From: Verrucomicrobiota bacterium
GTDB lineage: Bacteria; Verrucomicrobiota; Kiritimatiellia; SS1-B-03-39; UBA6053
NCBI GenBank assembly: GCA_046581765.1
Contig: JAYGFS010000338.1
Coordinates: 1 to 54,541 of the forward strand
DNA length: 54,541 bases
Direction: 5' to 3'
Under the pieces are notes generated by a model, which saw only the letters and a program-made list of their open reading frames with translations, did not search any database and was not told where the DNA came from. Every line of letters starts with the position of its first letter. The stretch's first letter is position 1. A program made the translations under genes and the position numbers. This document shows, piece after piece, positions 6,517 through 43,885 of the stretch.

Positions 6517-6523
6517 GACCGCC

Positions 6524-7009: not shown

Positions 7010-7259
7010 GGCATCTCCGGTTCAAGGTGCCCGGCCGGACGAGGCCGGGATGCACATCCCTGCAAGCTACGAATGGATTGTACATGGCCACTTCCTCCAT
7101 TCAAGTACTTCCCGGGGAGGTTTATCCCCCACGCACACGTTAACGGCACCATTTTTTTTGGTTCTTTCACGTGGTCAGCGGGCAAGGACCCCATCGCCTT
7201 CCGGTGGAGCACGAGAAAAACCTGTTGCATTCCCCCGGCCGGGTCCCAAGGATAACCCC

Positions 7260-27315: not shown

Positions 27316-28283
27316 GTGACCCGCCGGGCCGGTTGTCCACGTTTATTCATCCAGATGAAAGGTAACCCGAATCCGGCAATGATCAATCCGATTCCGAACT
27401 GGGCAAGCGACAGCGCGGTGGCCGGTTCGGCGGAGATTCCCTGGGTGCCGAGGAGAACCACAAAGGAGAGTTCCCGCACCCCGAGACCCCCGAAACTCAG
27501 GGGGACAGCCGTGATCAGCCAACTGATGGCAGTTATCATGGACAAGCTGAGAAACCCGATGGGCAAGTCGAGGTTCCGGGCGATCAAGTAGACGGCGAGG
27601 AAGGAGACGAGGTGCATGACGAAACAGAGCAGGATGCCCATCGCAACCCGCCCGCGATTGCTGCGATAGTATTCCGTTGCCCCGGTCCAGGTCTCCAGCA
27701 GGCGCACGAGCTGGGCACCCCGTTTTCCGCATCGACCGAGGATTCCCGCCAGGCTCCGGTTAACGGGTCGGTTCAAGCTCAGCCCGGCCCCGAGCAGGGC
27801 GAGGGAAAACATGCCGCCCATGCCGAGCACGAAAGGGACCTTCTGCTCGAGGCCCTCGGCAAAAACCCCGCATATCGTCCCCAGCAGGAGAATCGAGAAC
27901 AGGCCCACCACCCGGTCGACCAACATGCCCACCAGGTTAATCGCCCGATGACTCTCGGCCTCCTTCATGATGTAGACCGAACGAACGAGGTCACCACCGA
28001 GGGCGCCGGGCATGACGAGGTTAAAGGTGTTGCCGATCATGGTATAGCGGAAATAATCGAATACGTGCCATTGACCGGTGGGATCCGGATTCAGCCACAT
28101 CCACCGCATGCTGGACAAGCCATGGCGAAACACGGTGAGCACGATGTAGAGGAGCACACAGGGTACACTCAAGCCCGCGATGTGTGCCGTGGCCGAACGC
28201 AGGTCCACGAAGTGGAAAAGCAGGCCCAGGCAGACCGTGAGCACCGCAATGCGAAAGACCAGGTTAACGGTTTTTTTATTCAT
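27312..28283 (-). CDS. flippase-like membrane protein (LPG-synthase-TM / UPF0104 family)
   Basis: Trimmed to the ATG at 28281..28283 (MNKKTVNLVFRIAVLTVCLGLLFHF...). The ATG at 28334 is an alternative. It has about 8 TM helices. The motif NLVMPGALGGDLVRSVY is typical of the family as I recall it. Confidence 0.75.
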   Translation of the reverse strand: MNKKTVNLVFRIAVLTVCLGLLFHFVDLRSATAHIAGLSVPCVLLYIVLTVFRHGLSSMRWMWLNPDPTGQWHVFDYFRYTMIGNTFNLVMPGALGGDLVRSVYIMKEAESHRAINLVGMLVDRVVGLFSILLLGTICGVFAEGLEQKVPFVLGMGGMFSLALLGAGLSLNRPVNRSLAGILGRCGKRGAQLVRLLETWTGATEYYRSNRGRVAMGILLCFVMHLVSFLAVYLIARNLDLPIGFLSLSMITAISWLITAVPLSFGGLGVRELSFVVLLGTQGISAEPATALSLAQFGIGLIIAGFGLPFIWMNKRGQPARRVT

Positions 28284-28383
28284 GGAATGTCGTGGGCTAC
28301 TGGTTTCCGGATTCGCAGCCGCTCGTCGCAGCATGTGCTGCTTTCGGTTGCCGGGTTTGCCACCTTGCCGGGACCGCCGGAGC

Positions 28384-29322
28384 TCAGGGATTCTTCTGGA
28401 TGAAGATATCCCAGCCACCCACCAGGGAATACCGGCGGCCGAGCAATCTCCACGGCAGCTTGATGCAGTGGGCGACCAGGGAGCGGAAAAAATGTTCACT
28501 GAAAGCGGTTTCCACGATGGAGGGCTGGGAATGCACGATCCGGTGTGGACCGGATGGGCTGATCGTGGAAAAGTACCCCTCCCAGAAACCCTGGCCCATG
28601 TCGTGGATATGCCCGGGAAAAGTGAAGTCAAGCGTGAGCCCGAAGCGTTTCATCAACCTGAGGACCGGGACCACGAAGGGCGTGCGCACGTAGAGGATGC
28701 CCCCCGGGCGGAGAAACGCGAGGAGGCGTTCCGTCTCGGTCTTGGCATCCGGTAAATGCTCAATAATCGCACTGGCGATCACGATGTCAAAGGTGCCTGC
28801 CGCGGATGCAAGGGCATCCAGGCTGGGTTCGTGCCGCATGGTTATGGCTTCGCGGGTACTCTCCACAACGGCATCGTGGTATTCGACAACGGTGACAACG
28901 ACTTCCGGATACCCGGCAGCCACCAGCTGTTCCGCCATGCGCAGGACGATGGTTCCGTCGCCCCCGCCAAAGTCGAGGATGTTCAGGGAACTCGGTGACA
29001 AGGCCCCCTGTATGACACCGGCCAGGTGGCCCGCGAAACGATTCACGTGCTTAAACGTAACCTGCGAGTCCCCGGGACCATCGTTCCCGGAGCGTTCGTA
29101 ATATCCGGTATAATACATTTCCAGCGCCGCGACGGTGGGAATACGCGAAGCCGTGCACACGCCACAGGAACGGCACTTCATCAAGTCGACATCCGGGTCC
29201 GCCTGCAACCGGGTGACCGCTACCCGGTCATCCACGTCGCAAAACAGGCAGTGGGTCTGCACAGCACCCAGCTCGCTTTCACCCAGGTGCTTGCTCGCAT
29301 GAAACGTGGTGGCATTCGGCAT
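28384..29322 (-). CDS. class I SAM-dependent methyltransferase with N-terminal CxxC...CxxC zinc-ribbon
   Basis: The start ATG at 29320..29322 forms a TGATG junction. Zinc-ribbon cysteines are HCLFCDV...KCRSCGVC. SAM motif I is LNILDFGGGDGTIV. Confidence 0.8.
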   Translation of the reverse strand: MPNATTFHASKHLGESELGAVQTHCLFCDVDDRVAVTRLQADPDVDLMKCRSCGVCTASRIPTVAALEMYYTGYYERSGNDGPGDSQVTFKHVNRFAGHLAGVIQGALSPSSLNILDFGGGDGTIVLRMAEQLVAAGYPEVVVTVVEYHDAVVESTREAITMRHEPSLDALASAAGTFDIVIASAIIEHLPDAKTETERLLAFLRPGGILYVRTPFVVPVLRLMKRFGLTLDFTFPGHIHDMGQGFWEGYFSTISPSGPHRIVHSQPSIVETAFSEHFFRSLVAHCIKLPWRLLGRRYSLVGGWDIFIQKNP

Positions 29323-30866
29323 CAGAAGGTCCTCCCGAAGGTCTTCTCCCACAGGCGCGCGGAACGCGTCCCGGAGGTGAAGGTCTCCAGGGTATGGTCC
29401 AGGCCGGGTCGGATTCCCAGGCCTGTTCCGAAAAGATTATTGGCATCGAGCCAGATATTCCCGGCCGCCCGGCGCTGCTCCAGCGCCAGTTCACCAAAAT
29501 ATGGAATGCCGGCCCAGGCCATGGCCGGCCGGTTGACAGCAATGACATCAAGCGGTTCCGCTACATACCCGAAACCCGGATGGGCGAGGATTTGGGCCTG
29601 CGGCCAATGCGCCAGCACCGTGCGATCGGGATAGTCCGCAGCCAGGGTGGAGGCGATCTCCCGGTTGAGGTGAAGATCCTCTTCGTATTCCAGGCTGCGC
29701 TCAAGGATGTAGCCATTGTTCAGTGCCGGTGAGCGGTAAAAGCGCCCGTGGTGGTTCGCACTGAAGAAAACCACGAGCAGTCCCAGGAAAGGGAGGCTTA
29801 TTTTCGCGGGCAAGGGCTTGAGTGCCAGGGCGAGCAGGATGAAGATCGCGGGATAAAGGAACAACAGGTAACGCGGCAACCAGGAAACGATCAGGATCGA
29901 CTCAAGGATCAGGCCGCCGAGTGCGAGGGCCAGTATCAATGGCATCTCATAGGGCAGGAGACAGGCCCGCCAGCTAAGGGGCTTCAGTACATTTTTTCGC
30001 ACCCGCCAGAGGATAAGCCCCACATGCAAAAGAAGCACCCCGAGCACAAGTGCCATGACATCGGGCACCTGGTTAAACATCATGAGGGTCTGCTCGCGGA
30101 GATAGTCCAGGCGGGAGGCCCCGGCGGGAAAGAAGGTGTCGTTCCCGATAGGATTGGTATCCGGCCGAAAGAAAAGCCAGGCCGCGAGACGGGCCCAACC
30201 TGAAAAATAGATGACGGGCACCAGGTACCCGGCCAGCAGGAGCAGGTCGCGACGGGTTTTCAGGTGGAAGAGGACAAAGCCGCCGGCCAGGCAAATCGAC
30301 ATCAGGGCCGGCATGGGTTTGACCGTTACCGCCACGATCATCGTGATAATGGCCCAGGCATGTTTACGCTGCACATACAGCCAAAAGCCAAGCAGGCACA
30401 GGCCGGCCAACATCAGGTCGCTACCCATCATGGATGCCTGGGCGATAAACATCGGCTGCAGGCACATGGCAAGGCTGGTGCCGATGGCGAGCGCGTATCC
30501 AACCCGCTTGTGCAGCAGCCGGACCATCATGCCGGCGAGGGCAGCCGCGAAGAAGAAGTTCAAAACATGCAGGAACACGAAGGTCGACTTCACCGTGGGG
30601 AAGACATGCATCAGCACGGCGTAAAACCCGGGCAGCCAGGAGAAAAAGTAGGTGCGAGGACCACCGGCCAGGTAGCCAAGTTCCTCACGGGCCAGTTTCA
30701 GGTAATTGAAATCGTTCTCGTACAGCCAGATGCCCTCCTGAAACATCCCGAGGATCGAATCCCAATACGGCGGATTCCCCAGGGCGGACATCCGGTAGAA
30801 GAACAGAAAAATCCACATGCCGAAGAACATCATCCATGAAGGTGATCGGAAAAAGTGAGCGTTCAC
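29322..30866 (-). CDS. GT-C-like (ArnT-type) integral membrane glycosyltransferase candidate
   Basis: 514 aa with at least 10 TM helices and a soluble C-terminal domain. It lies 20 nt downstream of an ArnC-like gene. The track start at 30866 is GTG, and the ATG at 30833 is an alternative. Confidence 0.75.
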   Translation of the reverse strand: MNAHFFRSPSWMMFFGMWIFLFFYRMSALGNPPYWDSILGMFQEGIWLYENDFNYLKLAREELGYLAGGPRTYFFSWLPGFYAVLMHVFPTVKSTFVFLHVLNFFFAAALAGMMVRLLHKRVGYALAIGTSLAMCLQPMFIAQASMMGSDLMLAGLCLLGFWLYVQRKHAWAIITMIVAVTVKPMPALMSICLAGGFVLFHLKTRRDLLLLAGYLVPVIYFSGWARLAAWLFFRPDTNPIGNDTFFPAGASRLDYLREQTLMMFNQVPDVMALVLGVLLLHVGLILWRVRKNVLKPLSWRACLLPYEMPLILALALGGLILESILIVSWLPRYLLFLYPAIFILLALALKPLPAKISLPFLGLLVVFFSANHHGRFYRSPALNNGYILERSLEYEEDLHLNREIASTLAADYPDRTVLAHWPQAQILAHPGFGYVAEPLDVIAVNRPAMAWAGIPYFGELALEQRRAAGNIWLDANNLFGTGLGIRPGLDHTLETFTSGTRSARLWEKTFGRTF

Positions 30867-30886: not shown

Positions 30887-31846
30887 TCAGGTGTCTTCAT
30901 TCGCATCATCATCCGAATCCACAACGTAGGTCGGACGATCCGTCATGCGGAGGTGTATGCGAGCGAGGTATTCGCCGATGATGCCCAGTGACAGGAGCTG
31001 CGCACCGGCGAAAACAGAGATGATAATGGACAGGAAGGCAAAACCCGGGACCGATGTCTCGTAACGGATCTTCAGGTACATGACGTGGGTGAATACGCCG
31101 ATGCCAAAGAGGATCATGCAGAAACCGATGACATTTGCCAGGCGCAGGGGCAAGGTGCTGAAGCCGGTCATCATGTTCAGGGCGTGGGAAATCAATTTGC
31201 GCACGGTGTAGCCGGAAGAACCAAAGGCACGCTCCTCGTGGCGTACCGGTACGGCAGAAAATCTTGTGGTCGACCAGGTCAGCAACACATCGATGGATAC
31301 ATTCGGGCTTTGATAATCCACAAAGGCCCGGCGCAGGCGCGTGCGAAACACCCGGAAGGCCGATGACTGATGGGCCGTCTCCGCCCCCATCACTCCCTGC
31401 AGTGCGAGCTTGGTGATCCGGGACGCCAGGTTGCGGAACAGCGAGTGCTGCTCTTTTTCCGGTGGACCGTAAACGACGTCATGCCCTTCCTCCAGTCGTG
31501 CGATCAACTTGGCCATCTCTTCCGGCGGATGCTGCAGGTCGTCATCCATGGTAACGAGGATCTCGTAACGGGCCTGCCGGATCCCGCACAGCAGGGCATT
31601 GTGCTGGCCGTAATTGCGCAACAGGTTGACGGGCCTGATCCACGTATGCTCCCCGGAGAGCTCATGCATGACCGCCCGACTGTTATCGGGGCTGCCATCG
31701 TTGACCAGGATGCATTCATACGAGTCGGCCAGCGTGGGCAGCACCGTGCCCAGGGCCTCGATCAAGGCGGGCAGGCATTCGTCGCTCCGGTAGACCGGAA
31801 CCACGACCGAGATCCCCGGTTTCAGCTTTGTGTGATTGGAGTCCAT
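30887..31846 (-). CDS. polyprenyl-phosphate aminosugar transferase (GT2, ArnC-like)
   Basis: 319 aa. ISVVVPVYRSDECLPALIEAL...CILVNDGSPDNS...LLRNYGQHNALLCGIRQA...TMDDDLQHPPEE is present, plus two C-terminal TM helices. This is very like my recollection of ArnC/PmrF. Confidence 0.9.
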   Translation of the reverse strand: MDSNHTKLKPGISVVVPVYRSDECLPALIEALGTVLPTLADSYECILVNDGSPDNSRAVMHELSGEHTWIRPVNLLRNYGQHNALLCGIRQARYEILVTMDDDLQHPPEEMAKLIARLEEGHDVVYGPPEKEQHSLFRNLASRITKLALQGVMGAETAHQSSAFRVFRTRLRRAFVDYQSPNVSIDVLLTWSTTRFSAVPVRHEERAFGSSGYTVRKLISHALNMMTGFSTLPLRLANVIGFCMILFGIGVFTHVMYLKIRYETSVPGFAFLSIIISVFAGAQLLSLGIIGEYLARIHLRMTDRPTYVVDSDDDANEDT

Positions 31847-32529
31847 AACCAGAAGCCTTCGGGAACGAGATAGCGTACACCCAGTCGAGCGTAGATGCCC
31901 ATGACCATGGTGTTGGTCGAGCTGTAGCTGGCAGATCCGATGCGGGCGCCCCGTTTTGCGTATTCAACCATGGCCTTGTGATACAGGTGCATCCCGGAAA
32001 TCGTGGCATCTTTGTGCAACATGGCCAAGGTCAAGTTCAGCGATTTTCCATTCATTTGGGAAACGAACCAGCCCTGGGCGACACCGTCCAAACGAACTTC
32101 CATGCACCATTGGGGTTGCTCAGCGATGAGATTGTTGGCCCAGAGCGCGTAGCGGGTATTCACCCGCTCGGGGGTCGCACCGGGCAGAAGCAGGAAGCGT
32201 TCGTGCTGAAACAGGGCCATGTGGGCGGGATTCAACTGGAAGGATTTATCCGAAGCGAACACCACGTCGATCGGATCCAGGCTGGGCGACGGGTCAACCT
32301 GGTGCAGGCCGATCTTGAAGCGCAACTGGATATCGGCATGGGTAAATCCAGCCGTGCTGAGCGCCCAGGCCGGTACGTCGGTATCATACAATTGGCGGTA
32401 TTCAACCCAGGCGTACGCGGCGAGTTGGGCCTCCTGGTCTGCCAGGGGCTGGTCAAAGAAAGCCGCATCGCTGACCAGCCCGGCCGGCTTGCCCCACCAG
32501 GCCGTGTTAAAAGCGTGTTCGTGAATCAT
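31822..32529 (-). CDS. GNAT-fold N-acyltransferase, WecD/RffC-like (NDP-4-amino-4,6-dideoxyhexose acyltransferase candidate)
   Basis: Start at the ATG 32527..32529 (ATGA junction). The N-terminus is MIHEHAFNTAWWGKPAG. The C-terminal GNAT core is EYAKRGARIGSASYSSTNTMVMGIYARLGVRY. Size and layout resemble E. coli WecD as I recall it. Confidence 0.6.
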   Translation of the reverse strand: MIHEHAFNTAWWGKPAGLVSDAAFFDQPLADQEAQLAAYAWVEYRQLYDTDVPAWALSTAGFTHADIQLRFKIGLHQVDPSPSLDPIDVVFASDKSFQLNPAHMALFQHERFLLLPGATPERVNTRYALWANNLIAEQPQWCMEVRLDGVAQGWFVSQMNGKSLNLTLAMLHKDATISGMHLYHKAMVEYAKRGARIGSASYSSTNTMVMGIYARLGVRYLVPEGFWLWTPITQS

Positions 32530-33686
32530 GCCTGTAGCTCCATGCATTCAAACAATTGCAGCAGGTAATCGTACCCGTCCCACACGGGACCAAAATGATG
32601 CATGGCCGATAATGGCACGAAGCGCTTGACCCGCGCACGGGCCATCCGGGCGAGAAAATCATCGCTCGCCGGCACGGCGAGGGCGTAACCGATGGTTTGA
32701 ATATTCCCGGGCAGGCGCGCGAAGGCGCCCTCCGTGGACATCCCGGTGAGCGGAAGAAATAGCGGGGCATCGATGGGGGGGTGATCCCCTACCCCGATGA
32801 CCGCAGCTCCACGGGGGGCCAAGTCCGCCCGCCAGCCCACGCCCGCCGCCCATTGACGGGCCATGACATTACCCGAAGCGACATGCGGCTCCGGCGACTG
32901 CTTGACCACCCGCGGCCAGGCCTCGACCAGGCGCGTGCGAAAAGCCTCGACCGCGGCAGCGTCGGCATCCAAAAGGATCACCCGCGAGGGCGAGGTACAT
33001 CCGGCCTGGCCGTAGACGAGAAAAACATTGATCAGGGATTCCAGCACCGCGTCATCTGCAGCGGCGGGGTCGATCCAGGCCTCGGAACGCTTGTCGGTAA
33101 AGGGCAGCGAGATACTGTGTAGCGGATGCGGCAGGGATTCGACCCCTTCCACGGCTGGTTCTCCACCGAAGACGATGCGCACCTGGGCTTCACCCGCCAT
33201 CTCGGCATTGCGCGGATCGTGGTGATCGAATACCCCGCGGGTGACGAAGGTATCGAGATAGGTCCGCAATACGGACGCCGGGTCGGCTTCTTCGATAAAA
33301 TCGAGCAAGGCCGCACAGAGATCTTCGCTACGCGAGCCGCCTTTGAAGCGAAGTTTATTTCCCGTCAGGCTGAGCAGGATCATCACCAGGGGGCCGAGTA
33401 AACTGACGTTGTTCGGAAGCCATACCGCAACGCTTCCCCGCGGGTAATACATGCGCGGACCCGCCTCAGCGGGTGCGCAGCGTGATCCGAAAACGGACTC
33501 GTACACACCCCAGAGTTGATCCGACGCGAGAAAGGTCATCAGGTAAGCCCATTCATCCCGGTTGAAAGCCTCCGGAACCTGGCGGGCCATCTTCCCGCGC
33601 AGGCCATCCCAGGCCGCGATAAGGGCCTCGGGATCATAGGGCAGGCTGACGCGGCCACGGGTAAAAGCGAGCAGGTGATCAGACAT
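32526..33686 (-). CDS. LuxC-like acyl-CoA/acyl-ACP reductase family protein
   Basis: Start at the ATG 33684..33686, an 8-nt overlap with the upstream stop. VWLPNNVSLLGPLVMILLSLTGNKLRFKGGSR resembles the LuxC LPGNVP segment. The candidate catalytic Cys lies in YGQAGCTSPSRVILL. Confidence 0.7.
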   Translation of the reverse strand: MSDHLLAFTRGRVSLPYDPEALIAAWDGLRGKMARQVPEAFNRDEWAYLMTFLASDQLWGVYESVFGSRCAPAEAGPRMYYPRGSVAVWLPNNVSLLGPLVMILLSLTGNKLRFKGGSRSEDLCAALLDFIEEADPASVLRTYLDTFVTRGVFDHHDPRNAEMAGEAQVRIVFGGEPAVEGVESLPHPLHSISLPFTDKRSEAWIDPAAADDAVLESLINVFLVYGQAGCTSPSRVILLDADAAAVEAFRTRLVEAWPRVVKQSPEPHVASGNVMARQWAAGVGWRADLAPRGAAVIGVGDHPPIDAPLFLPLTGMSTEGAFARLPGNIQTIGYALAVPASDDFLARMARARVKRFVPLSAMHHFGPVWDGYDYLLQLFECMELQA

Positions 33687-34725
33687 TGGCGCAGCCCCGT
33701 ACTTCGCTTTTAGGTATCCGTCCCATGAGCTCAAAAACCGTGCCGGACCGGCCACACGAGCAAGCACCGGGAACCAGGCGGCCCAGGTCCTCGGTCAGGA
33801 CATTGTGATACGGTGCACCCCAGGAAATGGTATTCATCAATTGCAGTTGGCCGACATCCTCCTCCAGGCATGCACCCGACACGGGATCACGCACGAGGAC
33901 ATCCGCCCAGGCGGGCGCCGTGCGGTACCCGCAGGGACAGAGGGGAAAGATCATGCCAACCTGTTCAACCAGCCCGTAGAAATCCATGACCTGCGAGGCG
34001 GGATCGAGATCCTCTTTCAGTTTGGCATCAAAGGTTGCGGGACTCACTTTTTGCGCCTCAAGCTTTTTCCATCCACCGCTGTGCACGAAGGTAATCCGTT
34101 TGCCTGCAAGTGCCTTTACAACGTCGTCCGGGAAGGCCTGCTCGACCCAGGCGAGCCAGAGCATCCAGGTGAATCCATAGACCATGAACGCATCGTGCCC
34201 GTCAATCGCCTCGAGCAGCTCCGGCCATTTCAAGCTGGCGGGATCGTTGCTGTCTTCGAGGAGGAAATACAACTGGCTCGCCAGGGGCTTGAGGCTCATG
34301 GCCGCCGCGATGCGGGCAGATATCTGGCGGCCACCGCGGAGTGCGCTGGCGCTGTCGAGGATACACAGGGGTTGCTGTTCATCGCCGATAAAATCCTTGA
34401 GCACGGCCAGGGAGCTCTGCGACTGGTATTCACTGCTGCGCGTATCGAGGGCGATCCTGCTCGACACACCGCTGGAGGTCGCAGAAGACAACAGCGTCCG
34501 CACGTGCTTGCTCCCATCGACGGCCGTGCGCAAATCCAGGTGCTTAAACACCTCGACATGCAACCAGGGCAGATCTTCCAGGCATTCGGCCGTGCCCGTA
34601 TCCGGCCAGATGCGCTTATACGCTTCGCAACCGTTCAAATGGTGTGCGCTCAAGGCATTCATCTCCGCGAGGAAAGCGGCATCATCGCGCTTCGCGTAGG
34701 GGGGCTGTTCCACGAATTGGCTCAT
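33679..34725 (-). CDS. LuxE-like acyl-protein synthetase (adenylate-forming)
   Basis: Start at the ATG 34723..34725 (ATGA junction). LPWLHVEVFKHLDL...LLSSATSSGVSSRI occupies the position of the LuxE SSGTTG motif. The C-terminus is GRIPKSEVRGCANV. Confidence 0.75.
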   Translation of the reverse strand: MSQFVEQPPYAKRDDAAFLAEMNALSAHHLNGCEAYKRIWPDTGTAECLEDLPWLHVEVFKHLDLRTAVDGSKHVRTLLSSATSSGVSSRIALDTRSSEYQSQSSLAVLKDFIGDEQQPLCILDSASALRGGRQISARIAAAMSLKPLASQLYFLLEDSNDPASLKWPELLEAIDGHDAFMVYGFTWMLWLAWVEQAFPDDVVKALAGKRITFVHSGGWKKLEAQKVSPATFDAKLKEDLDPASQVMDFYGLVEQVGMIFPLCPCGYRTAPAWADVLVRDPVSGACLEEDVGQLQLMNTISWGAPYHNVLTEDLGRLVPGACSCGRSGTVFELMGRIPKSEVRGCANV

Positions 34726-35630
34726 GCAAAAGAGGTGTTTAAAAAATAGTCGACATGACCGCGGCGTACCAGCACCCCATTGGTGCGGGTGCAAGGGTCC
34801 CTGAGGATGGTCTTCCAGTGCTCGCCGAGGAGACGGCGTACCGGCTCGAAGCGTTCCGGGTCAAACAACGCACGGGCACAGCCCTCAATGGCGGATTCAT
34901 CCACCTCGAACCGGGATACCAGCTCCGTCCATTTCTCCGCGTGCTCCCGGTTGAAGCGGAGGACCGGCCAGAGCAGGATGGCACAGAGGGCGGCGTGGCC
35001 GAATTGTTTCGAATCGTTCAACAGGTGCTCCAGCGAATGGGCGATGCCGTGGATCAAGCCCACGCTGCAGCGCGACTGGGCCGTACAGGCACGGGCGCTG
35101 AAACCAAACCAGGCGGAATCGGCCTGCAAGGGCTGGTCCAGCATCTCACTCACCAGGACGGCAATCTCCCCGCGCAGGCCATCCTCCGCCAGCGGGGACA
35201 TAAAGGCTTCCAGGGCATGGCTCCAGACATCGCCACAGGCATCCCTGGCTTGTGACACGGGAACCGTCGCCAGGAGTTCAGGCCAATAAACCCGGGCATG
35301 GGGCATGTAGCGATCATCCATCTCGATTTGTTTGCCCCTTGGCGTATTCAGCACGACAATCGGCGAAACCTCGGCTCCGCTTCCATAGATGGTCGGAACA
35401 CAAACCAGTTCAAACCCGCCGGGCCCCTGCTTCACCTTCCACTGGTCCATCAAGGCCCCGCCGCCGGCCACAACGAGTGTCTGCCCGGCTGCCGGGAGTC
35501 CATCGAGCCCGGGTATATTCAACTCCGCGAGGACCCGGTCCCGGCAGCTCGGGGTCACGCAGAGCCGGGTATCTTCGCGCCGGAGCCGTTTGAGCTGGTC
35601 CAGGCTCCAGACCGGAACCTCAGTCGGCAA
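34722..35630 (-). CDS. iron-containing alcohol dehydrogenase family protein (short form)
   Basis: VVAGGGALMDQWK (GGGS-type NAD motif), VCVPTIYGSGAEVS, and metal-site histidines in GLIHGIAHSLEH. The track ATG at 35783 would overlap the ACP gene by 163 nt. I therefore propose the TTG at 35628..35630, preceded by GGGGA 6 nt upstream. The exact start is uncertain. Confidence 0.7.
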   Translation of the reverse strand: MPTEVPVWSLDQLKRLRREDTRLCVTPSCRDRVLAELNIPGLDGLPAAGQTLVVAGGGALMDQWKVKQGPGGFELVCVPTIYGSGAEVSPIVVLNTPRGKQIEMDDRYMPHARVYWPELLATVPVSQARDACGDVWSHALEAFMSPLAEDGLRGEIAVLVSEMLDQPLQADSAWFGFSARACTAQSRCSVGLIHGIAHSLEHLLNDSKQFGHAALCAILLWPVLRFNREHAEKWTELVSRFEVDESAIEGCARALFDPERFEPVRRLLGEHWKTILRDPCTRTNGVLVRRGHVDYFLNTSFA

Positions 35631-35865
35631 AGGAGATCCCCTTGTTTTCGAGCAGGTCGATGATGTCCTGGACCCGGGCCACGCCGGTGGCCTCCTCCGG
35701 GGTGAAATGATAGCCAAAGGTCTCCTTGACCCCCACGGCCACCGAGACCACGGCGAGGGAGTCCCAGGTTTCCACGTCCTCACGGGTCAGGTCGAAACTG
35801 AATTCCTCCGGTTCAAGGAGGAAGATATCCAGCAGTAAATCACTTAGTTTTTCGCGGTTCGTCAT
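35620..35865 (-). CDS. acyl carrier protein
   Basis: 81 aa from the ATG at 35863..35865 (MTNREKLSDLLLDIF...). The phosphopantetheine attachment motif is ETWDSLAVVS. It is acidic and of helical-bundle size. Confidence 0.85.
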   Translation of the reverse strand: MTNREKLSDLLLDIFLLEPEEFSFDLTREDVETWDSLAVVSVAVGVKETFGYHFTPEEATGVARVQDIIDLLENKGISFAD

Positions 35866-35878
35866 AGGGCAGGTACCT

Positions 35879-37060
35879 TTAGAGTCGTTGACGCCAGTGC
35901 TCCTGCTTATCGGCCAGGGTGGGCAAGGCAAGAATATCCGTTTTCCCGTTGGGCAACACGGGCAGTTGTGCCGCGCTCTCAATGCGCAGGGGCCAGTGGG
36001 TGCGCGGGAAATCCTTGCGGAAGCGCAGAAGTATTTCCCGCACTTCCTTCTTGTCCGGATGGGGTGCCAGGCTCAACACGTGGGCTTCCTCTCCACCCGG
36101 ATCATGGGCCTTGTAAAACGCGGCGGCATGTGGCCAGACCTCGCCGACCGACTTCAACAGGCTACTCAGGGAAATTTTTTCCCCGAAGCGCTTAAATACT
36201 TCGCCACTTCGGCCAAGAACCCGCCAATGGCCATTCGGGCCTTCTTCCGCCAGGTCGCCGGTGGAAATCCACTGCGTGTCGTGGACCGCGCTAAAGCCCT
36301 GCTCATCCATGAAGGCGACGGCTGAAAAGGGGCTCTGGAAAGTCAACTCCCCTGCCCCATCCAGCCGGAGTTCCACCCCATCGAGCGGTCGACCGACATC
36401 TGCAGCATCGTCGGCCTCATGGGCTTTCCGCAGGGTCAACCGGGGCATCGCCTCGGCACACCCGTAGTTGTTGTAGATCGTAGCCGAGGGAAATCGCCGG
36501 GCGAGATCCGCCAGGTGCTCCTGCGGGAAACGGCCCCCGGCAAAATGCACGCGCTGCACCTGGGGAAAGGTCGCATCGGGAAAATGTTGGTGGAACAGGG
36601 GCAACTGGGCTCCGACGAGGCAGATCATGGATGCCGGGGTCGAGGCAAGGGCGGTCTCCAGCTCGACCGGCCGGGAAAATCCGTCCGTCATGACCAGGTC
36701 GCGGCCCAGGCTGCGGGCCCAGCGCCACTGGTTGACAAAGGCGTAACAGTAGGTCAGCGGGAGCAGGCAGACGGTGGCCTGCACCGCCTCGCTATCCTGC
36801 CGCTCATGGAGGTGCCGGGCCAGGGCCTCCGCGCGATCCCGCAAGCCGATGACCAACTTCGGTTCCCCGGTCGTGCCCGAGGTCAGCAGAATAAAGTGAC
36901 CTTCCGCGTAGTCCCCGGGAATCCCGGCGAGACGTTCTGCGATCCAGGCCTCACCGGCGGCTGACTTTTCGGGCAGGAAAATAAAGGTTTCCGGCGCGGC
37001 CCAGGCACGATCCAGCTCAGCCAGGTCGGTGCGGACCTGTTGCTCGTGTAAGGTTTTCAT
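35879..37060 (-). CDS. AMP-dependent synthetase/ligase (acyl--ACP ligase candidate)
   Basis: 393 aa with ATG at 37058..37060. Adenylation motifs are LLTSGTTGEPKLV, YGCAEA, TGDLAEEGPNGHWRVLGRSGE and PVLPNGKTD. It sits directly upstream of the ACP gene. Confidence 0.88.
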   Translation of the reverse strand: MKTLHEQQVRTDLAELDRAWAAPETFIFLPEKSAAGEAWIAERLAGIPGDYAEGHFILLTSGTTGEPKLVIGLRDRAEALARHLHERQDSEAVQATVCLLPLTYCYAFVNQWRWARSLGRDLVMTDGFSRPVELETALASTPASMICLVGAQLPLFHQHFPDATFPQVQRVHFAGGRFPQEHLADLARRFPSATIYNNYGCAEAMPRLTLRKAHEADDAADVGRPLDGVELRLDGAGELTFQSPFSAVAFMDEQGFSAVHDTQWISTGDLAEEGPNGHWRVLGRSGEVFKRFGEKISLSSLLKSVGEVWPHAAAFYKAHDPGGEEAHVLSLAPHPDKKEVREILLRFRKDFPRTHWPLRIESAAQLPVLPNGKTDILALPTLADKQEHWRQRL

Positions 37061-37064
37061 GATT
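37056..37064. repeat. 9-nt TTCATGATT, left copy flanking the wecE segment
   Basis: An identical 9-mer occurs at 38210..38218. The left copy contains the AMP-ligase start codon. The right copy contains the stop of the GT-C gene. Confidence 0.9.
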
Positions 37065-37098
37065 GCACGCCCCGCGTGCTTGGTTTACCAAGAGGTCC
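37061..37098. promoter_or_regulatory. 38-bp divergent spacer with two short palindromes
   Basis: GCACGC-CCC-GCGTGC (37065..37079) and CTTGG-TTTA-CCAAG (37079..37092) fill the whole gap between the AMP-ligase ATG (37060, minus) and the wecE ATG (37099, plus). A regulatory role is inferred only from position. Confidence 0.3.
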
Positions 37099-38229
37099 AT
37101 GAAGATTCCTTTCAACCGCCCCTTCATCGTCGGCCGTGAACTCGAGTACATTCGCGAAGCGGTCGAGGGCGGACAACTGGCGGGGGATGGCCGTTTCACC
37201 CAGCGCTGCCAGGCCTGGATGGAAGAGCGTTTTGATATCGACAAGGTACTCCTGACAACGTCCTGCACCATGGCACTTGAGATGTCGGCTATCCTGTGCG
37301 ACATCCAACCCCGGGACGAGGTCATCCTGCCCTCTTACACCTTTGTCACCACCGCGAATGCTTTTGTGCTGCTGGGTGCGCAACCCGTGTTCGTCGACAT
37401 CGATCCCACCACGCTGAACATGGACCCCTCGGCCATCGAGGCCCGCATCACGGAGCGCACCAAGGCGATCGTTCCGGTTCATTACGCGGGTGTAGGCTGT
37501 GACATGGACGCGATTGGTGCGATTGCCAAAAGGCATAAGCTCCGCGTGGTCGAGGATGCCGCACAGGGGGTGAACGCGCGTTACCGGGACCGCTACCTCG
37601 GCAGTATCGGGGATCTGGGTTGTTTCAGCTTTCATGAGACCAAGAATTTCATTGCCGGGGAAGGTGGTGCCATCACCATCAACGACCCGGGCCTGGTCGA
37701 ACGCGCGGAGATCATCCGCGAAAAAGGCACGGACCGGAGCAAGTTCTTCCGGGGCGAGGTGGATCGGTATACCTGGGTGGATATCGGGTCGTCGTTTTTA
37801 CCGTCTGAACTGGTGGCCGCCTACCTCTTCGCGCAACTGGAAGAAGCCGATCGCATTACCGAGAAGCGGCTGGCGATCTTCGACCGCTACAGCGCGGGCC
37901 TTCAATCGCTGCAGGATGCGGGAACCCTTCGCCTGCCCATCATTCCCGAACACTGCCAGCACAACGGGCATATGTTTTACCTGATCCTGGATTCGCAGGA
38001 ACAGCGGGCGGACCTGATCGCCCATTTGAAAAGCCGGGACATGCTTGCCGTCTTTCATTATATCCCGCTGCACACCTCGCCCATGGGTCAACGCTTTGGC
38101 GGCCGGGCGGGTGATCTGCCGGTGACCGAGGACCTGAGTAAGCGCCTGCTGCGCCTGCCCTGCTACTTTGAACTGAGCCCTTCCGAGCAGGAGTGCGTTA
38201 TCAAGGCGGTTCATGATTTCTTCCGGTAA
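37099..38229 (+). CDS. wecE: dTDP-4-amino-4,6-dideoxy-hexose (4-keto-6-deoxyhexose) transaminase, DegT/WecE family
   Basis: 376 aa from the ATG at 37099. Near-colinear similarity to E. coli WecE as I recall it: MKIPFNRPFIVGRELEYIREAV, LPSYTFVTTANAFVL, VPVHYAGVGCDMD, VVEDAAQGV, GCFSFHETKNFIAGEGGA, AEIIREKGTDRSKFFRGEVDRYTWVDIGSS, HMFYLIL, AVFHYIPLH, RLLRLP. It is the only + strand gene inside the 44-kb minus-strand array. Confidence 0.95.
   Translation: MKIPFNRPFIVGRELEYIREAVEGGQLAGDGRFTQRCQAWMEERFDIDKVLLTTSCTMALEMSAILCDIQPRDEVILPSYTFVTTANAFVLLGAQPVFVDIDPTTLNMDPSAIEARITERTKAIVPVHYAGVGCDMDAIGAIAKRHKLRVVEDAAQGVNARYRDRYLGSIGDLGCFSFHETKNFIAGEGGAITINDPGLVERAEIIREKGTDRSKFFRGEVDRYTWVDIGSSFLPSELVAAYLFAQLEEADRITEKRLAIFDRYSAGLQSLQDAGTLRLPIIPEHCQHNGHMFYLILDSQEQRADLIAHLKSRDMLAVFHYIPLHTSPMGQRFGGRAGDLPVTEDLSKRLLRLPCYFELSPSEQECVIKAVHDFFR
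38210..38218. repeat. 9-nt TTCATGATT, right copy flanking the wecE segment
   Basis: Identical to 37056..37064. It lies inside the 19-nt convergent overlap of wecE and the GT-C gene. Confidence 0.9.
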
Positions 38230-39836
38230 AGGCGTATTTCGGGGCCGCTGAACGGGATCTTGATGCGCACTTCCCCCGGCCAGGATTGCACCAGCTCGTA
38301 GTTTTCCTGGTCGAAAATCAGGTCCTGGTAAAAGCGAAACTCCTCGGCGGTCGGAATCTGTTTATCCAACCACCACCCGCCGCCAACCCAGTTGAAGTCT
38401 TCATCCAGGTGCTTGTGTTTGTCCAACAGGGCCCGCCGCATACGCACGAGGTTTATGTCGTTTGTAACAATGTATTCCGGCTCATCGAGAATGGATACGA
38501 GCTGGTACTTCTCCGCGCGAATAACCGGATACCGCCACTCGTGCTCCCGCCAGTCCCGAAAGTCCGGCGCATTGGCCATGGTTAGTCGAGCGCCTTCCGG
38601 GAGATACCCCGCCAGGTAGGCTGCAGCGATGGTGCGGGAATCGTGCTTCCTGACCTCAATCGCGATCGCGATGCTGCGGAGATTCCACACCAGGATAAAA
38701 ACCGCCAGCGAACAGGCCAGCGAACGAGTGAGAAGGGAGCGATGCTGAATCAACCGCGCGAGCATGCGAGCGGAGAACAAGGCCAGGATCGTGGATATAA
38801 ACAGCAGGTAGCGCGCCGGAATCCACCCGCCCCAGAACAACAGGATGGAGCATACCAGGATGGGCATGCTCAGCCAGCACTTGAAATAGGGATGGTTGCG
38901 CCCCGGGTAGGAGAAAAGAAAACCGGCCAGCGGCACCCAGGCCAGGAACGGGGTATACATCTCGTTAAAGGCGAGACCCCACCCGCGACGAATGCGCCAG
39001 CCCTGGTGCATTTCCCCGGGGAACCAGAGATCCGGGCGACTGGTCATCCAGGCGACATACTCGGGGAAATGCAGGAAAATATGCGGCGTCGTGATGAAGG
39101 TGGTCAGGATGGCAACGCCGGCATAGATCGACATGGGAGCGATCCAGGTCCTCGCTTCCTCCCACCAGCGCGATCGGTCTTTCAGGATCGCTCCACCCAG
39201 GTAAACAAGGGGCACGATCCCGATGAAGAAGGCGTAGATCTTCATGCCAATGAGGTACCCGGTCGCCATGCCCAGTAACACGAAGGCCCGCTTGGATTTG
39301 CGCTCGAAAGCCCAGGGCACGAGGAGCAGGAGCAGGGTGACAAAGAACGACATCGGCACATCGAGGCTGCAGATCGGCGAGTTAATCACATGATAATAAC
39401 CAAGGGCCACCAGGGCGGCGGCAAACCAGGCGGTCATCCCATCGTAGAGTTTGCGCCCCAGCTTGAAGACCAGGAACACACATCCCACGCCGAACAGGCT
39501 GTTCACGAAACGAAAGGCCAGGACATTGAACTGCAAGCGGTCGATACCGCCAAAGAGTACACCAATCTTATTCCAGCCGATGTTCACCGGGTAACAGCAG
39601 ATGGCGAGCGTATACTGCAGGGCGGTTCCGTATTCATAGCGATGGTTGTTGAGATAGTTGCCGGGGAAGTTGGTCATCGACCGCCAGGCCTTGTGCTCGT
39701 CGGGATGGTAGTAACCCGTGTGTTCATCGATGCCGGTTCCCCAGGTGAGCATGGACAGGCGGAGGACCAGGCTGAGCAGGGCCAGCAGGATCAACCAACG
39801 ATGCTGCCGAATCAATATGAACCATTTCTTGCGCAT
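38211..39836 (-). CDS. GT-C-like (PMT_2/ArnT-type) integral membrane glycosyltransferase candidate
   Basis: Trimmed to the ATG at 39834..39836 (MRKKWFILIRQHRWLILLALLSLVLRL...), which forms a TAATG junction. The first loop is GTGIDEHTGYYHPDEHKAW. It has more than 10 TM helices and a soluble C-terminal domain. Its 3' end overlaps the wecE 3' end by 19 nt. Confidence 0.8.
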   Translation of the reverse strand: MRKKWFILIRQHRWLILLALLSLVLRLSMLTWGTGIDEHTGYYHPDEHKAWRSMTNFPGNYLNNHRYEYGTALQYTLAICCYPVNIGWNKIGVLFGGIDRLQFNVLAFRFVNSLFGVGCVFLVFKLGRKLYDGMTAWFAAALVALGYYHVINSPICSLDVPMSFFVTLLLLLVPWAFERKSKRAFVLLGMATGYLIGMKIYAFFIGIVPLVYLGGAILKDRSRWWEEARTWIAPMSIYAGVAILTTFITTPHIFLHFPEYVAWMTSRPDLWFPGEMHQGWRIRRGWGLAFNEMYTPFLAWVPLAGFLFSYPGRNHPYFKCWLSMPILVCSILLFWGGWIPARYLLFISTILALFSARMLARLIQHRSLLTRSLACSLAVFILVWNLRSIAIAIEVRKHDSRTIAAAYLAGYLPEGARLTMANAPDFRDWREHEWRYPVIRAEKYQLVSILDEPEYIVTNDINLVRMRRALLDKHKHLDEDFNWVGGGWWLDKQIPTAEEFRFYQDLIFDQENYELVQSWPGEVRIKIPFSGPEIRLYRKKS

Positions 39837-41125
39837 TAGAATAAACCGCGAAATATCTGCATGTCCGACCAGTCCCAGAGCCGGGAGGGATCCTCGTTCA
39901 CACTGGTCGGCGTGCCATTCCAGTCGTGTACCTCGCGGCTGCTCAATCCGCGAAACTGGACAAAAGCGCTGAACAGGCCGGCGCAGGCCAGGCCCAGGAG
40001 CGCGGGACGCTTTCCGTCCTCGAGTACCGGCAAGAGGAGCAGCGCCCAGACCGGCGCGATGCCGGCGAAGAGACGCGGGCCGTAGGACCAACCCGCCCAC
40101 CAGACGGGCCAGAGGGCATTGAAGGCCAGGTGCACGAGCACGATAATCGAAAGATAGCGCAACATCAGCCGGGTCCTTTTTCCCCGCCAGATCATCACGC
40201 AGGCAAGCAGGCTGAAGATAAACACCGGCGTGAAAACCAGCAGCCCGCGATTGGGACTGGCCACCAGACCTGCCAGGCCCATGAGCACGGCAGAGAACGA
40301 CGTGGCGATCTCGTCGACCGGCCCCTGGTAGGGCTGCACCAGGGTGCCGTAGGTCACGAGGCAATGGGCAACGTACAACGCGGCAATCGCCCCACCGCTG
40401 AGCACGAAGGGAATGAATTGTTTACGGTGATGAAGGAACAGGTAAACCGTGAACGCCGTGGTGGCGACGATCATATCCGGTCGCAGCACGGTCGAGAAGG
40501 CCAGCGGGAAAGCCGCGGTCCAGGCCCAGCGCCCGTTCTCAACCAGCAGCAGGGCCAAGGCGGCGAGCAAAAAGAACGCACCCGGGTTATGTGACCAGTA
40601 GCCCCCGACATGGCTCGACACGTGCGGCGTCACCAGGGCAAAAAGCACCGTGAGGACGACAACCTGCCAGGTTTTCCTCGCAAGCTGTCGGGCGACGAGG
40701 AAAAAAAGCGCCACGGAGGCCGCCGCGTAAATCTTGGCGAGCAGCGGGGTGATCAACATGGACCGCCAGACCCGATTCGACACGTGGCGGTAACGCCAAT
40801 TCAGCATCGGCAGGAGCGGTATGGCCGCCACCGCATTCCCGATGGTATAGTGATTCACGAGGCCAACGGATTCCAGCTGGTAGATCCGGTAATCCCTTTC
40901 GGGATCGAGGTATTCCTGCAGGAAAGGATTCTCGGGATACAGGGCCTCGAGATCGGGTCGAAATTCACTCAACTCGATATTGCCCTCCGCGAGCAGGCTC
41001 ATCGCGGTCGGCACGTACCAGAAATTATCGCTCCGGGTCATGATTTCGCCCGGAACGTCCCAGGGCAGGTACAGGACCAGGGCCGAGAGGCCGGCGACGA
41101 CTGGACCGAGCAGGACCTTAAGCAC
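39836..41125 (-). CDS. uncharacterised polytopic membrane protein, paralog B of a tandem pair (GT-C-like)
   Basis: Start proposed at the GTG 41123..41125, an 8-nt overlap with the upstream TAA. This aligns the N-terminus with the paralog. Shared motifs are NFWYVPTAMSLL, AKIYAAASV, GGYWSHNPGAFF, SPNRGLLVFTPV, WPVWWAGWSYGPRLF and LWDWSDMQIFRGLF. Confidence 0.75.
   Translation of the reverse strand: MLKVLLGPVVAGLSALVLYLPWDVPGEIMTRSDNFWYVPTAMSLLAEGNIELSEFRPDLEALYPENPFLQEYLDPERDYRIYQLESVGLVNHYTIGNAVAAIPLLPMLNWRYRHVSNRVWRSMLITPLLAKIYAAASVALFFLVARQLARKTWQVVVLTVLFALVTPHVSSHVGGYWSHNPGAFFLLAALALLLVENGRWAWTAAFPLAFSTVLRPDMIVATTAFTVYLFLHHRKQFIPFVLSGGAIAALYVAHCLVTYGTLVQPYQGPVDEIATSFSAVLMGLAGLVASPNRGLLVFTPVFIFSLLACVMIWRGKRTRLMLRYLSIIVLVHLAFNALWPVWWAGWSYGPRLFAGIAPVWALLLLPVLEDGKRPALLGLACAGLFSAFVQFRGLSSREVHDWNGTPTSVNEDPSRLWDWSDMQIFRGLF
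39855..39879. repeat. 25-nt direct repeat, copy 1 (ATCTGCATGTCCGACCAGTCCCAGA)
   Basis: 24/25 identical to 41152..41176. It encodes the shared WDWSDMQI C-terminal motif of the paralog pair. Confidence 0.85.
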
Positions 41126-43822: not shown

Positions 43823-43885
43823 AAGGCGATGGGGTGGGAATGAACCGTCAACAACGGCCCGGGTTAAGCGATACAAGGTCCCGCG

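Follow-up and report, generated by a model that had tools for sequence, protein, structure and literature searches.

A conserved ligase, carrier protein, LuxE, and LuxC gene cassette beside wecE in a Kiritimatiellia contig: a candidate module for N-acylation of an amino sugar

Why would relatives of the bioluminescence proteins LuxC and LuxE be encoded with an acyl carrier protein (ACP) in one operon, next to the gene for a sugar aminotransferase? This question is raised by the Kiritimatiellia contig JAYGFS010000338.1, of which we analyzed positions 1 to 54,541 (here called the window; coordinates are in nucleotides from its first letter). An initial annotation of this DNA had described six consecutive minus-strand genes, encoding an adenylating ligase, an ACP, an iron-type alcohol dehydrogenase (Fe-ADH), LuxE-like and LuxC-like proteins, and a WecD-like acyltransferase of the GNAT family, and had proposed that they build an acyl group on the carrier protein and attach it to an amino sugar. 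We conclude that the operon is probably a module for an N-acylated 4-amino-4,6-dideoxyhexose, with the acyl group made on a dedicated carrier protein.

Families were assigned using Pfam gathering scores, NCBIfam cut-offs, phmmer searches against the PDB, BLASTP, hhalign, and AlphaFold models searched with Foldseek. Gene boundaries were set from the open reading frame (ORF) listing, inspection of start codons, and gene calls in close relatives. Relatives were gathered by scanning species-representative genomes with LuxE motifs (alignment A2), which found LuxE relatives in at least 592 genomes. The best 80 of these genomes were compared in detail and form two classes of 40 loci each: a close subfamily and a distant class. 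Components were counted over the 23 close-subfamily loci whose flanks extend to 6 kb or more in each direction, here called fully flanked. A second retrieval, which started from the GNAT, gave 8 distinct contexts.

Gene layout and family assignments

The six genes lie where they had been placed, and the motifs quoted for them (LLTSGTTGEPKLV, WDSLAVVS, GGGALMDQWK, and PTIYGSGAEVS) are all present in the translations. A seventh gene belongs to the unit too: that for an ArnC/GtrB-like family 2 glycosyltransferase (GT2), which shares 25 nt with the GNAT gene. Starting from the ligase gene, the junctions of this seven-gene run are a 13-nt gap and then overlaps of 11, 4 (ATGA), 8, 4 (ATGA), and 25 nt, so translational coupling of the minus-strand genes, as had been claimed, is plausible. 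The start of the alcohol dehydrogenase (ADH) gene was picked from an upstream AAGGGG motif and from agreement with the gene call in a relative, locus L002. In a scan for promoters and terminators, promoter-like sites occurred at chance level, and no terminator-like site marked an operon boundary.

The aminotransferase gene, wecE, had been said to abut the cassette. It does lie beside it but runs divergently from the ligase gene, on the (+) strand, with a gap of 38 bp if its start aligns with residue 1 of Escherichia coli WecE. At its 3' end, wecE converges on the gene for a PMT_2-type GT-C membrane glycosyltransferase (Table 1).

Table 1. Features of the window, with the number of fully flanked close-subfamily loci (of 23) that carry each component. 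Fuc4N, 4-amino-4,6-dideoxy-D-galactose.
Feature	Position	Strand	Remarks	Loci (of 23)
Short ANL ligase	37060-35879	-	393 aa; proposed loader of acid onto ACP	21
ACP	35865-35620	-	81 aa, stand-alone	22
Mini Fe-ADH	35630-34722	-	302 aa, TTG start; proposed aldehyde reductase	21
LuxE-type acyl-protein synthetase	34725-33679	-	348 aa	
LuxC-type acyl-thioester reductase	33686-32526	-	386 aa	23
WecD-like two-domain GNAT	32529-31822	-	235 aa; proposed N-acyltransferase onto 4-amino sugar	17
ArnC/GtrB-like GT2	31846-30887	-	319 aa; proposed polyprenyl-phosphate N-acyl-Fuc4N transferase	12
WecE ortholog (WecE-like gene in relatives)	37099-38229	+	ORF opens at 37063; likely start is Met at 37099	12
PMT_2-type GT-C membrane glycosyltransferase	38211-39836	-	541 aa from internal Met; candidate periplasmic transferase	
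Flippase-like LPG_synthase_TM/TIGR00374 membrane protein	27312-28631	-	True start probably internal; weak candidate flippase	
PgfS-like GT2	26365-27315	-	NF047588, 251 bits	
GDSL acylhydrolase	25079-26512	-	N-terminal membrane segment	
Methyltransferase	28384-29352	-		
Polytopic membrane protein, first of tandem pair	39836-41185	-	449 aa	
Polytopic membrane protein, second of tandem pair	41118-42434	-	438 aa	
Flavin amine-oxidase-like protein	42431-43876	-	481 aa	
FkbM methyltransferase	43886-44839			
GalE-like epimerase	44712-45668			
DUF6044/YfhO-like membrane protein	17407-19545	-	712 aa	
Sulfotransferase	19701-20570	-		

The two genes spanning 32526-34725 had been read as LuxC- and LuxE-like, and both belong to these families. 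PF04443 matches LuxE with 136.9 bits (gathering score, 24.9) over residues 50 to 371 of the long ORF, and PF05893 matches LuxC with 62.7 bits (gathering score, 21); the closest solved matches are the Photobacterium LuxE and LuxC of structure 7xc6. A profile of the LuxE family aligns with 7xc6_E over nearly the full length (E value, 1.1e-16), and HMMER places HSGGWKK of the window protein on GGWKTK and its C-terminal R..RGCA on R..KGCS. In Photobacterium phosphoreum LuxE, cryo-electron microscopy located the adenylation and self-acylation site at Lys238, Arg355, and the self-acylated Cys364 (PMC9157457). The GGWKK and R...RGCA motifs of the window protein fall on these positions, and its K219/K220, R335, and C344 are invariant in alignment A2.

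For LuxC, neither the sequence nor a nine-sequence LuxC profile found a PDB sequence match, 7xc6 included. The AlphaFold model (predicted local distance difference test [pLDDT], 90.4) has Photobacterium LuxC, 7xc6_A, as its top Foldseek match in the PDB (E value, 2.1e-15; TMq, 0.79), with aldehyde dehydrogenases ranking next. The sole Cys invariant among 41 homologs is C230, within YGQAGCTSP, and the loop that precedes it has a low pLDDT; the active-site cysteine of P. phosphoreum LuxC is Cys296.

The carrier-protein call holds by a profile of nine orthologs, which finds solely ACPs in the PDB (best E value, 6.8e-7); the window protein itself has no Pfam PP-binding match at an E value of ≤0.01 and weak NCBIfam ACP matches (22 bits). 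T33-W34-D35-S36 is invariant in the ACP alignment (A6), with S36 in the D-S-L position of the phosphopantetheine serine, and in loci L005 and L093 a phosphopantetheinyl transferase gene (PF01648) adjoins the cassette.

The ligase matches PF00501 with 63.5 bits (gathering score, 29.9), as its annotation as an AMP ligase had implied. The match runs from residue 56 onward over model positions 166 to 355, and about 110 aa of the usual N-terminal part are missing. By eye, the translation contains the ANL-like core motifs TSGTTGEPK, YGCAE, STGD, and PNGK; the profile match and the core motifs, with both the P-loop and the catalytic Lys in PxxxxGK, place the protein in the ANL family. Relatives outside the window's own lineage keep the ligase at the same position, with 42 to 54% identity. 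Its best NCBIfam match is the 2-oxoglutaryl-ACP ligase AmcH (78 bits; cut-off, 370), and this nearest named family, whose members attach a dicarboxylic keto acid to ACP, speaks for the module proposed above.

Other matches of the ligase would fit an amino acid substrate. The second-best NCBIfam model is an amino acid adenylation domain (70.8 bits), DltA models match too, and the best PDB match, the only one at an E value of ≤1e-8, is the D-alanyl carrier protein ligase 7vhv. With the same machinery and the same acceptor, Asp or Glu would be loaded in the manner of DltA, and LuxE, LuxC, and the ADH would mirror the logic of aspartate kinase, semialdehyde dehydrogenase, and homoserine dehydrogenase, ending in a homoseryl- or 5-hydroxynorvalyl-type amide. 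We consider this variant of the main proposal unlikely, given that the top-scoring model is a keto acid-ACP ligase. None of these scores comes near its family cut-off, so they carry little substrate information, and it appears that the substrate cannot be named from them.

In L002, L003, L004, and L013 (78 to 89% protein identity), a gene for a 117-aa glyoxalase/VOC family protein lies between the ligase and ACP genes, at about 6287-6640 in L002, where the window has its 13-nt gap. This extra protein may modify the acyl substrate in those strains.

The ADH had been described as truncated at its N terminus. It is indeed short, but compared with E. coli FucO it mainly shows internal deletions: three internal segments of the N-terminal domain are gone, while GGG..D..K, P.T.G..AE, and D185/H189/H245(H249)/H263 (long-ORF numbering) are invariant in the alignment. 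Because these segments are absent and the ligands and motifs are kept, the protein is, as judged by this alignment, a "mini" Fe-ADH rather than a plain N-terminal truncation. A phmmer search of the PDB retrieves solved Fe-ADHs with E values down to 3.4e-11, and the orthologs in loci L005 to L011 carry a PF00465 match.

The GNAT has no Pfam, NCBIfam, or PDB sequence match. BLASTP finds no significant alignment with E. coli WecD (E value, 0.36), and the hhalign alignment, though colinear over 179 columns, has little strength (probability, 21%; E value, 0.001). The AlphaFold model (pLDDT, 95.9) has WecD, 2fs5_A, as its top Foldseek match (E value, 5.9e-11; TM, 0.72/0.76; 240 columns; 18% identity). 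The WecD-like label thus stands at the level of the fold, weakly so by profile, and in its modeled two-domain fold the GNAT is WecD-like. The family is small, with 95 cluster representatives at an E value of ≤1e-30 among 1.84 billion proteins in a full HMMER search. All eight contexts retrieved with the GNAT contain the five-gene core of ligase, ACP, ADH, LuxE, and LuxC. That the GNAT always goes with the ACP/LuxCE cassette suggests a donor other than the acetyl-CoA of WecD.

The aminotransferase matches NF008687 with 612 bits (cut-off, 375) and TIGR02379 with 585 bits and is 60% identical over 374 aa to WecE of E. coli K-12. By these matches it is the WecE ortholog that it had been taken for, predicted to convert dTDP-4-keto-6-deoxy-D-glucose to dTDP-4-amino-4,6-dideoxy-D-galactose (dTDP-Fuc4N). 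The best structural match of the GNAT, WecD, is the N-acylator of the product of WecE, which argues for the sugar module. Amination of a LuxC-made aldehyde by the aminotransferase, in a tambjamine-like pathway, was considered and rejected for this equivalog-level protein.

The GT2 belongs to PF00535, and its best NCBIfam match is ArnC (NF007986, 198 bits), aligned full length (residues 12 to 310 with model positions 8 to 309 of 316). Because the ArnC equivalog cut-off of 529 is not reached, the protein is classed by its scores as ArnC/GtrB-like and not as ArnC proper. Homologs that flank the cassette in fully flanked relatives (Table 1) are 47 to 59% identical to it. The GT-C protein matches PF13231 (35.2 bits; gathering score, 26.1). 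Its gene is kept beside wecE in close relatives, and PMT_2-like proteins also flank the cassette in L008, from which we infer a functional link with the cassette.

Conservation and neighborhood of the cassette

The nearest contig, L012, from a Kiritimatiellia metagenome-assembled genome (MAG), has the same nine genes with 93 to 98% protein identity. Across the 40 loci of the close subfamily, LuxE is 49 to 97% identical to that of the window, and the order ligase-ACP-mini-ADH-LuxE-LuxC is fixed. At least 40 species-level genomes, spread over more than 10 phyla, have this five-gene core. Going by record titles, the taxa are Kiritimatiellia, Verrucomicrobiota, Planctomycetota, Omnitrophota, Acidobacteriota, Myxococcota, Gamma- and Alphaproteobacteria, Massilia, Bacteriovoracaceae, Syntrophobacteraceae, and Acidimicrobiia, and the carriers include at least four cultured strains, Elongatibacter sediminis CH-27 and Parahalioglobus pacificus KCTC 23430 among them. 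With one gene order repeated across dozens of unrelated genomes, the linkage is far beyond chance. The 40 loci of the distant class have LuxE proteins of 31 to 40% identity and are missing the ADH and the GNAT; in a plasmid collection, only distant LuxE relatives (≤34% identity) were found.

The glycan setting supposed for the cassette is borne out by its neighbors in relatives, which are WecE-like aminotransferases, ArnC/GtrB-like GT2 proteins, GtrA, PMT_2-type GT-C proteins, Wzz, and methyltransferases. In most other taxa the wecE ortholog is codirectional and just 3' of the GNAT gene; in L005, L007, L008, L014, L020, L030, L031, L033, and L093, the gene immediately after that of the GNAT is WecE-like. 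Of the 17 fully flanked relatives with the GNAT, 10 have a WecE-like gene adjacent or close by, as does the window. The flanks of L093 encode the phosphopantetheinyl transferase (ACPS), GtrA, a GT2, and a DegT protein. Where the GNAT is missing, another N-acyltransferase follows LuxC: in Massilia this is an Acetyltransf_3 GNAT, accompanied by Wzz and a WecE-like gene, and elsewhere a MaoC protein, an LbH acyltransferase, and a DegT protein are found.

This neighborhood also bears on whether the cassette could be a fatty acid reductase system as in bioluminescence, producing a long-chain aldehyde or alcohol, or attaching a long fatty acyl chain to yield a "liposugar" or a lipid. Canonical LuxC and LuxE reduce myristic acid (PMC9157457), the authors who described related cassettes in flagellin glycosylation islands took them as fatty acid synthesis genes and suggested liposugars, and NCBIfam long-chain acyl-CoA ligase models match our ligase weakly. 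However, no fatty acid, wax ester, or phospholipid genes lay beside the cassette in any locus inspected; what lies there are aminotransferases, N-acyltransferases, and the glycan genes listed above. An ANL ligase and ACP in addition to LuxE would be redundant for a mono-acid, and the unexplained glycan masses of the Aeromonas island are small and fit C4H6O3, not a fatty chain. A role in fatty acid reduction is thus very unlikely.

Two loci carry questionable taxonomic labels. The contig of L003/L013 (Ga0535658_0004284) was deposited as "Candidatus Omnitrophota bacterium," while a Kiritimatiellia MAG is the named source of an identical GNAT protein, and L012, the contig nearest to the window, is also from Kiritimatiellia; one of the bins is probably mislabeled. 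Locus L040 (CAZPCY010000025.1, 18.5 kb), binned as a Candidatus Poseidoniales archaeon, encodes a LuxE-LuxC-GNAT segment of the close subfamily with 51%, 43%, and 36% identity, which reflects either mis-binning or transfer into archaea.

A proposed route to the N-acylated sugar

The family assignments and the glycan neighborhood support the earlier proposal of an acyl group made on ACP for an N-acylated 4-amino-4,6-dideoxyhexose, and suggest a substrate, an order of steps, an acyl group and its donor, an acceptor, and a route to the envelope. Two carboxyl-activating enzymes, the ANL ligase and LuxE, in one invariant cassette point to a substrate with two carboxyls. The ANL ligase would adenylate a small acid of this type and thioesterify it to the 81-aa holo-ACP. 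The likeliest acids would be C4-C5 dicarboxylic, hydroxydicarboxylic, or aminodicarboxylic acids, e.g., malate, succinate, aspartate, or 2-oxoglutarate. LuxE would then adenylate the free distal carboxyl and take the acyl group onto its C-terminal Cys344. LuxC would receive it, probably on Cys230, and reduce it with NAD(P)H to the aldehyde, which the mini Fe-ADH would convert to the alcohol, giving an omega-hydroxyacyl-ACP of the tetronate, 4-hydroxybutanoyl, or homoseryl type.

On the sugar side, WecE would form dTDP-Fuc4N from dTDP-4-keto-6-deoxyglucose, with rmlAB elsewhere in the genome supplying this precursor, and the WecD-like GNAT would acylate dTDP-Fuc4N at its 4-amino group, with the acyl-ACP as donor. 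The ArnC-likeness of the GT2, together with the GtrA or flippase-like and PMT_2 GT-C neighbors, suggests a lipid-carrier route like those of the Arn and Gtr systems: the GT2 would put the N-acyl sugar on polyprenyl phosphate, the lipid-linked sugar would be flipped, and the GT-C enzyme would add the sugar to an envelope glycan on the periplasmic side. That all of this makes up one widespread pathway, with on-carrier reduction by LuxE, LuxC, and mini-ADH, an acyl-ACP-using GNAT acting on dTDP-Fuc4N, and polyprenyl-phosphate delivery to the periplasmic side, we put forward tentatively, as a possibility that falls somewhat short of probable.

Amino sugars with omega-hydroxyacyl amides have precedents in nature: perosamine with tetronate in Vibrio cholerae O1, and N-(4-hydroxybutanoyl)-Qui3N, reported for Idiomarina abyssalis in reference 55 of PMC8074265. 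The Idiomarina locus L075 was considered as a link between a LuxE cassette and Qui3N and was rejected, as it has a FabG-type cassette beside pseudaminic acid genes.

One side observation touches the identity of the acid. In L010 (Acidobacteriota-like, without sugar genes), an Asp-Al_Ex family transporter is encoded at 5885-7510, directly upstream of the ligase gene. Such transporters are presumably of the aspartate:alanine or succinate exporter type, and this one is a weak hint of a C4 dicarboxylate substrate.

Several points weigh against the route as drawn. The AmcH score of the ligase is far below the cut-off, and the amino acid adenylation models score almost equally. The ADH of the window scores 24.1 bits with PF00465, below the gathering score of 31.3; the Fe-ADH call holds through the metal ligands and nucleotide motifs that align with FucO. 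WecD uses acetyl-CoA, and the use of an acyl-ACP by the GNAT is our proposal. The window has no rmlA or rmlB, its sole 4,6-dehydratase/nucleotidyltransferase pair being LegB/PtmE-like, so the dTDP-glucose steps must be encoded elsewhere. The functions given to the members are predictions from sequence and models. In L010, L021, and L037, the six-gene cassette occurs without a sugar gene within 10 kb. Finally, direct reduction of acyl-ACP or acyl-CoA is within the reach of LuxC-like enzymes (bioRxiv 10.1101/2025.08.11.669332), so other orders of steps are possible.

This last point could be taken further. If LuxC reduced the ACP thioester itself and freed the aldehyde for processing by the ADH or an aminotransferase, the product would be a small alcohol or amine and not an acyl donor; the LuxC-like TabE is such a stand-alone acyl-ACP/CoA reductase, in tambjamine biosynthesis (bioRxiv 10.1101/2025.08.11.669332). 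Neither the GNAT nor LuxE, whose self-acylation Cys is conserved, would then have a role, and an aminotransferase of equivalog-level likeness to WecE, 60% identical to the E. coli enzyme, is of the sugar type. We regard a freed aldehyde as highly improbable.

The three loci without sugar genes fit a different departure, in which the acyl group is made as proposed, the GNAT acts on an acceptor other than a nucleotide sugar, such as an amino lipid, peptide, or free amine, and WecE serves a separate N-acetyl sugar. GNAT folds acylate many kinds of amines, and the sequence similarity of this GNAT to WecD is marginal. For the window we nonetheless give such an acceptor little credence, since WecD is the top structural match across the whole two-domain protein, the gene next after that of the GNAT is WecE-like in many unrelated taxa, and, beside wecE in the window, the GNAT is the only candidate N-acyltransferase.

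Known systems and the surrounding glycan genes

The N-acyl groups carried by amino sugars shape the epitopes of O antigens and flagellins, the receptors of phages, and recognition by the immune system. One of them, tetronate, occurs on perosamine in Vibrio cholerae O1. A pathway to tetronate, that is, 2,4-dihydroxybutanoate, was reportedly proposed from sequence by Morona et al. in 1995 (Gene 166:19) for rfbK-O (wbeK-O), reportedly with the same logic as the pathway proposed here. To our knowledge, the making of nonacetyl groups such as tetronate still stands at that sequence-based proposal.

The V. cholerae set reportedly consists of an ACP, an AMP ligase, an Fe-ADH, a LuxE/LuxC-like reductase, and an N-acyltransferase, in a similar gene order and adjoining a 4-amino-6-deoxyhexose pathway, with RfbN a LuxE-LuxC fusion and RfbO of the hexapeptide type. 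As so described, the two systems would share the enzyme set and the 4-amino-6-deoxyhexose neighbor. They differ in that the window ligase has 393 aa and WbeL (VC0249) has 471, LuxE and LuxC are separate genes and reportedly fused in RfbN, the ADH is a 302-aa mini form, and the acyltransferase is a WecD-like GNAT in place of the reportedly hexapeptide-type RfbO. The sugar would be dTDP-Fuc4N, through WecE, and not GDP-perosamine, and an ArnC-like GT2 is coupled to the window cassette. The cassette is of a kind already known, but not known to have been reconstituted, in which ACP, ligase, and reductases supply a nonacetyl N-acyl group to an amino sugar. It is set apart by the mini Fe-ADH, the shortened ligase, the separate LuxE and LuxC, a WecD-like GNAT that is invisible to family libraries, and the coupling to WecE and an ArnC-like GT2.

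The flagellin-island cassettes of Aeromonas group II, Enterobacteriaceae, and Idiomarina L075 likewise have ACP, AMP ligase, LuxE, and LuxC inside a glycan locus and are likewise uncharacterized. Their LuxE proteins are only 31 to 40% identical to that of the window, they have a short-chain dehydrogenase/reductase (FabG) where the window has an Fe-ADH, their ligase is about 476 aa long, and they are linked to pseudaminic acid genes and not to WecE; none of the 40 loci of this class has the WecD-like GNAT. The island of Aeromonas piscicola AH-3 carries a related FabG/ACP/ligase/LuxE/LuxC cassette, and the flagellin glycan of this strain contains an "unknown 102 Da moiety" and a 376.14-Da pseudaminic acid derivative (PMC7874193). 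By our arithmetic, 102.03 Da corresponds to C4H6O3 (dihydroxybutanoyl), and 316.13 - 42.01 + 102.03 = 376.15 Da corresponds to Pse5Ac7Ac with one acetyl swapped for the C4H6O3 group. These masses suggest that the products of FabG-type cassettes may be tetronate-like groups and not fatty acyl chains.

The bioluminescence LuxC-LuxE complex (7xc6) is the best solved match for both window proteins, with the Lys, Arg, and Cys of LuxE kept and a single invariant Cys in LuxC. The window LuxC is about 90 aa shorter, luxAB and luxD are absent here, and the partners are instead an ACP, a ligase, an ADH, and a predicted sugar N-acyltransferase. With the enterobacterial common antigen locus the window shares an orthologous WecE (60%) and a neighboring acyltransferase with the WecD two-domain fold, whereas BLASTP finds no similarity between the GNAT and WecD and the window has no wecF, wzxE, or wzyE. 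Arn (4-amino-4-deoxy-L-arabinose, L-Ara4N) and Gtr systems resemble the neighborhood in having a DegT family aminotransferase, an ArnC/GtrB-like GT2, a GtrA- or flippase-like protein, and a GT-C protein, and N-acylation at the 4-amino group, as proposed here, would be another likeness. The sugar and acyl group would differ, there is no ArnA formyltransferase or ArnD deformylase, and the lipid-carrier route is suggested by gene linkage alone.

If the proposal is correct, the cassette would represent a modification system of the Arn/Gtr type in which both the sugar and the route to its acyl group are new, and a simpler, separate-protein model for the tetronate chemistry of cholera O1, which is not known to have been reconstituted. 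The subfamily is experimentally tractable, consisting of compact, separate, and tightly conserved proteins that occur across many phyla and in at least four cultured strains. On-carrier carboxyl reduction by LuxE and LuxC, an acyl-ACP-dependent sugar N-acyltransferase, and a potentially new lipid-carrier-linked envelope modification would become testable. In addition, labels of "fatty acid synthesis" on LuxC and LuxE genes in glycan loci are probably misleading.

The window has a second possible lipid-carrier glycosylation set at 25079-29352 on the minus strand, with the PgfS-like GT2, the GDSL acylhydrolase, and a methyltransferase (Table 1), and the block is kept in L002. The flippase-like protein encoded there matches PF03706 (137.5 bits, residues 125 to 418) and TIGR00374 (66.6 bits). 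Members of its family also lie near the cassette in L002, L009, and L011, and it may serve this second GT2 instead of the cassette.

Upstream of the GT-C gene are two tandem genes for paralogous polytopic membrane proteins, which have no Pfam match and share an N-terminal ...NFWYVP.AMSLL.EGN... motif and a C-terminal ...WDWSDMQIFRGL motif. They are kept upstream of the GT-C and WecE genes in L002 to L004 and may be novel GT-C-like transferases. The flavin amine-oxidase-like gene, whose product matches PRK07208-type NCBIfam models with about 139 bits (below the cut-off), also lies among glycan genes, adjoining those for the FkbM methyltransferase and the GalE-like epimerase.

At 51561-54195 on the minus strand are genes for a LegB-like NAD-dependent 4,6-dehydratase (TIGR04180, 453 bits; cut-off, 475), a CBS-domain sugar-1-phosphate nucleotidyltransferase, and, as a fragment at the window end, an Acetyltransf_6 (FemAB-like GNAT) protein. 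These matches suggest a legionaminic acid-type nonulosonic acid pathway in the same glycan region. The DUF6044/YfhO-like membrane protein is a possible GT-C of the lipoteichoic acid or wall teichoic acid (LTA/WTA) type, and its gene adjoins that of the sulfotransferase, which hints at sulfated, multiply decorated envelope glycans in the source organism.

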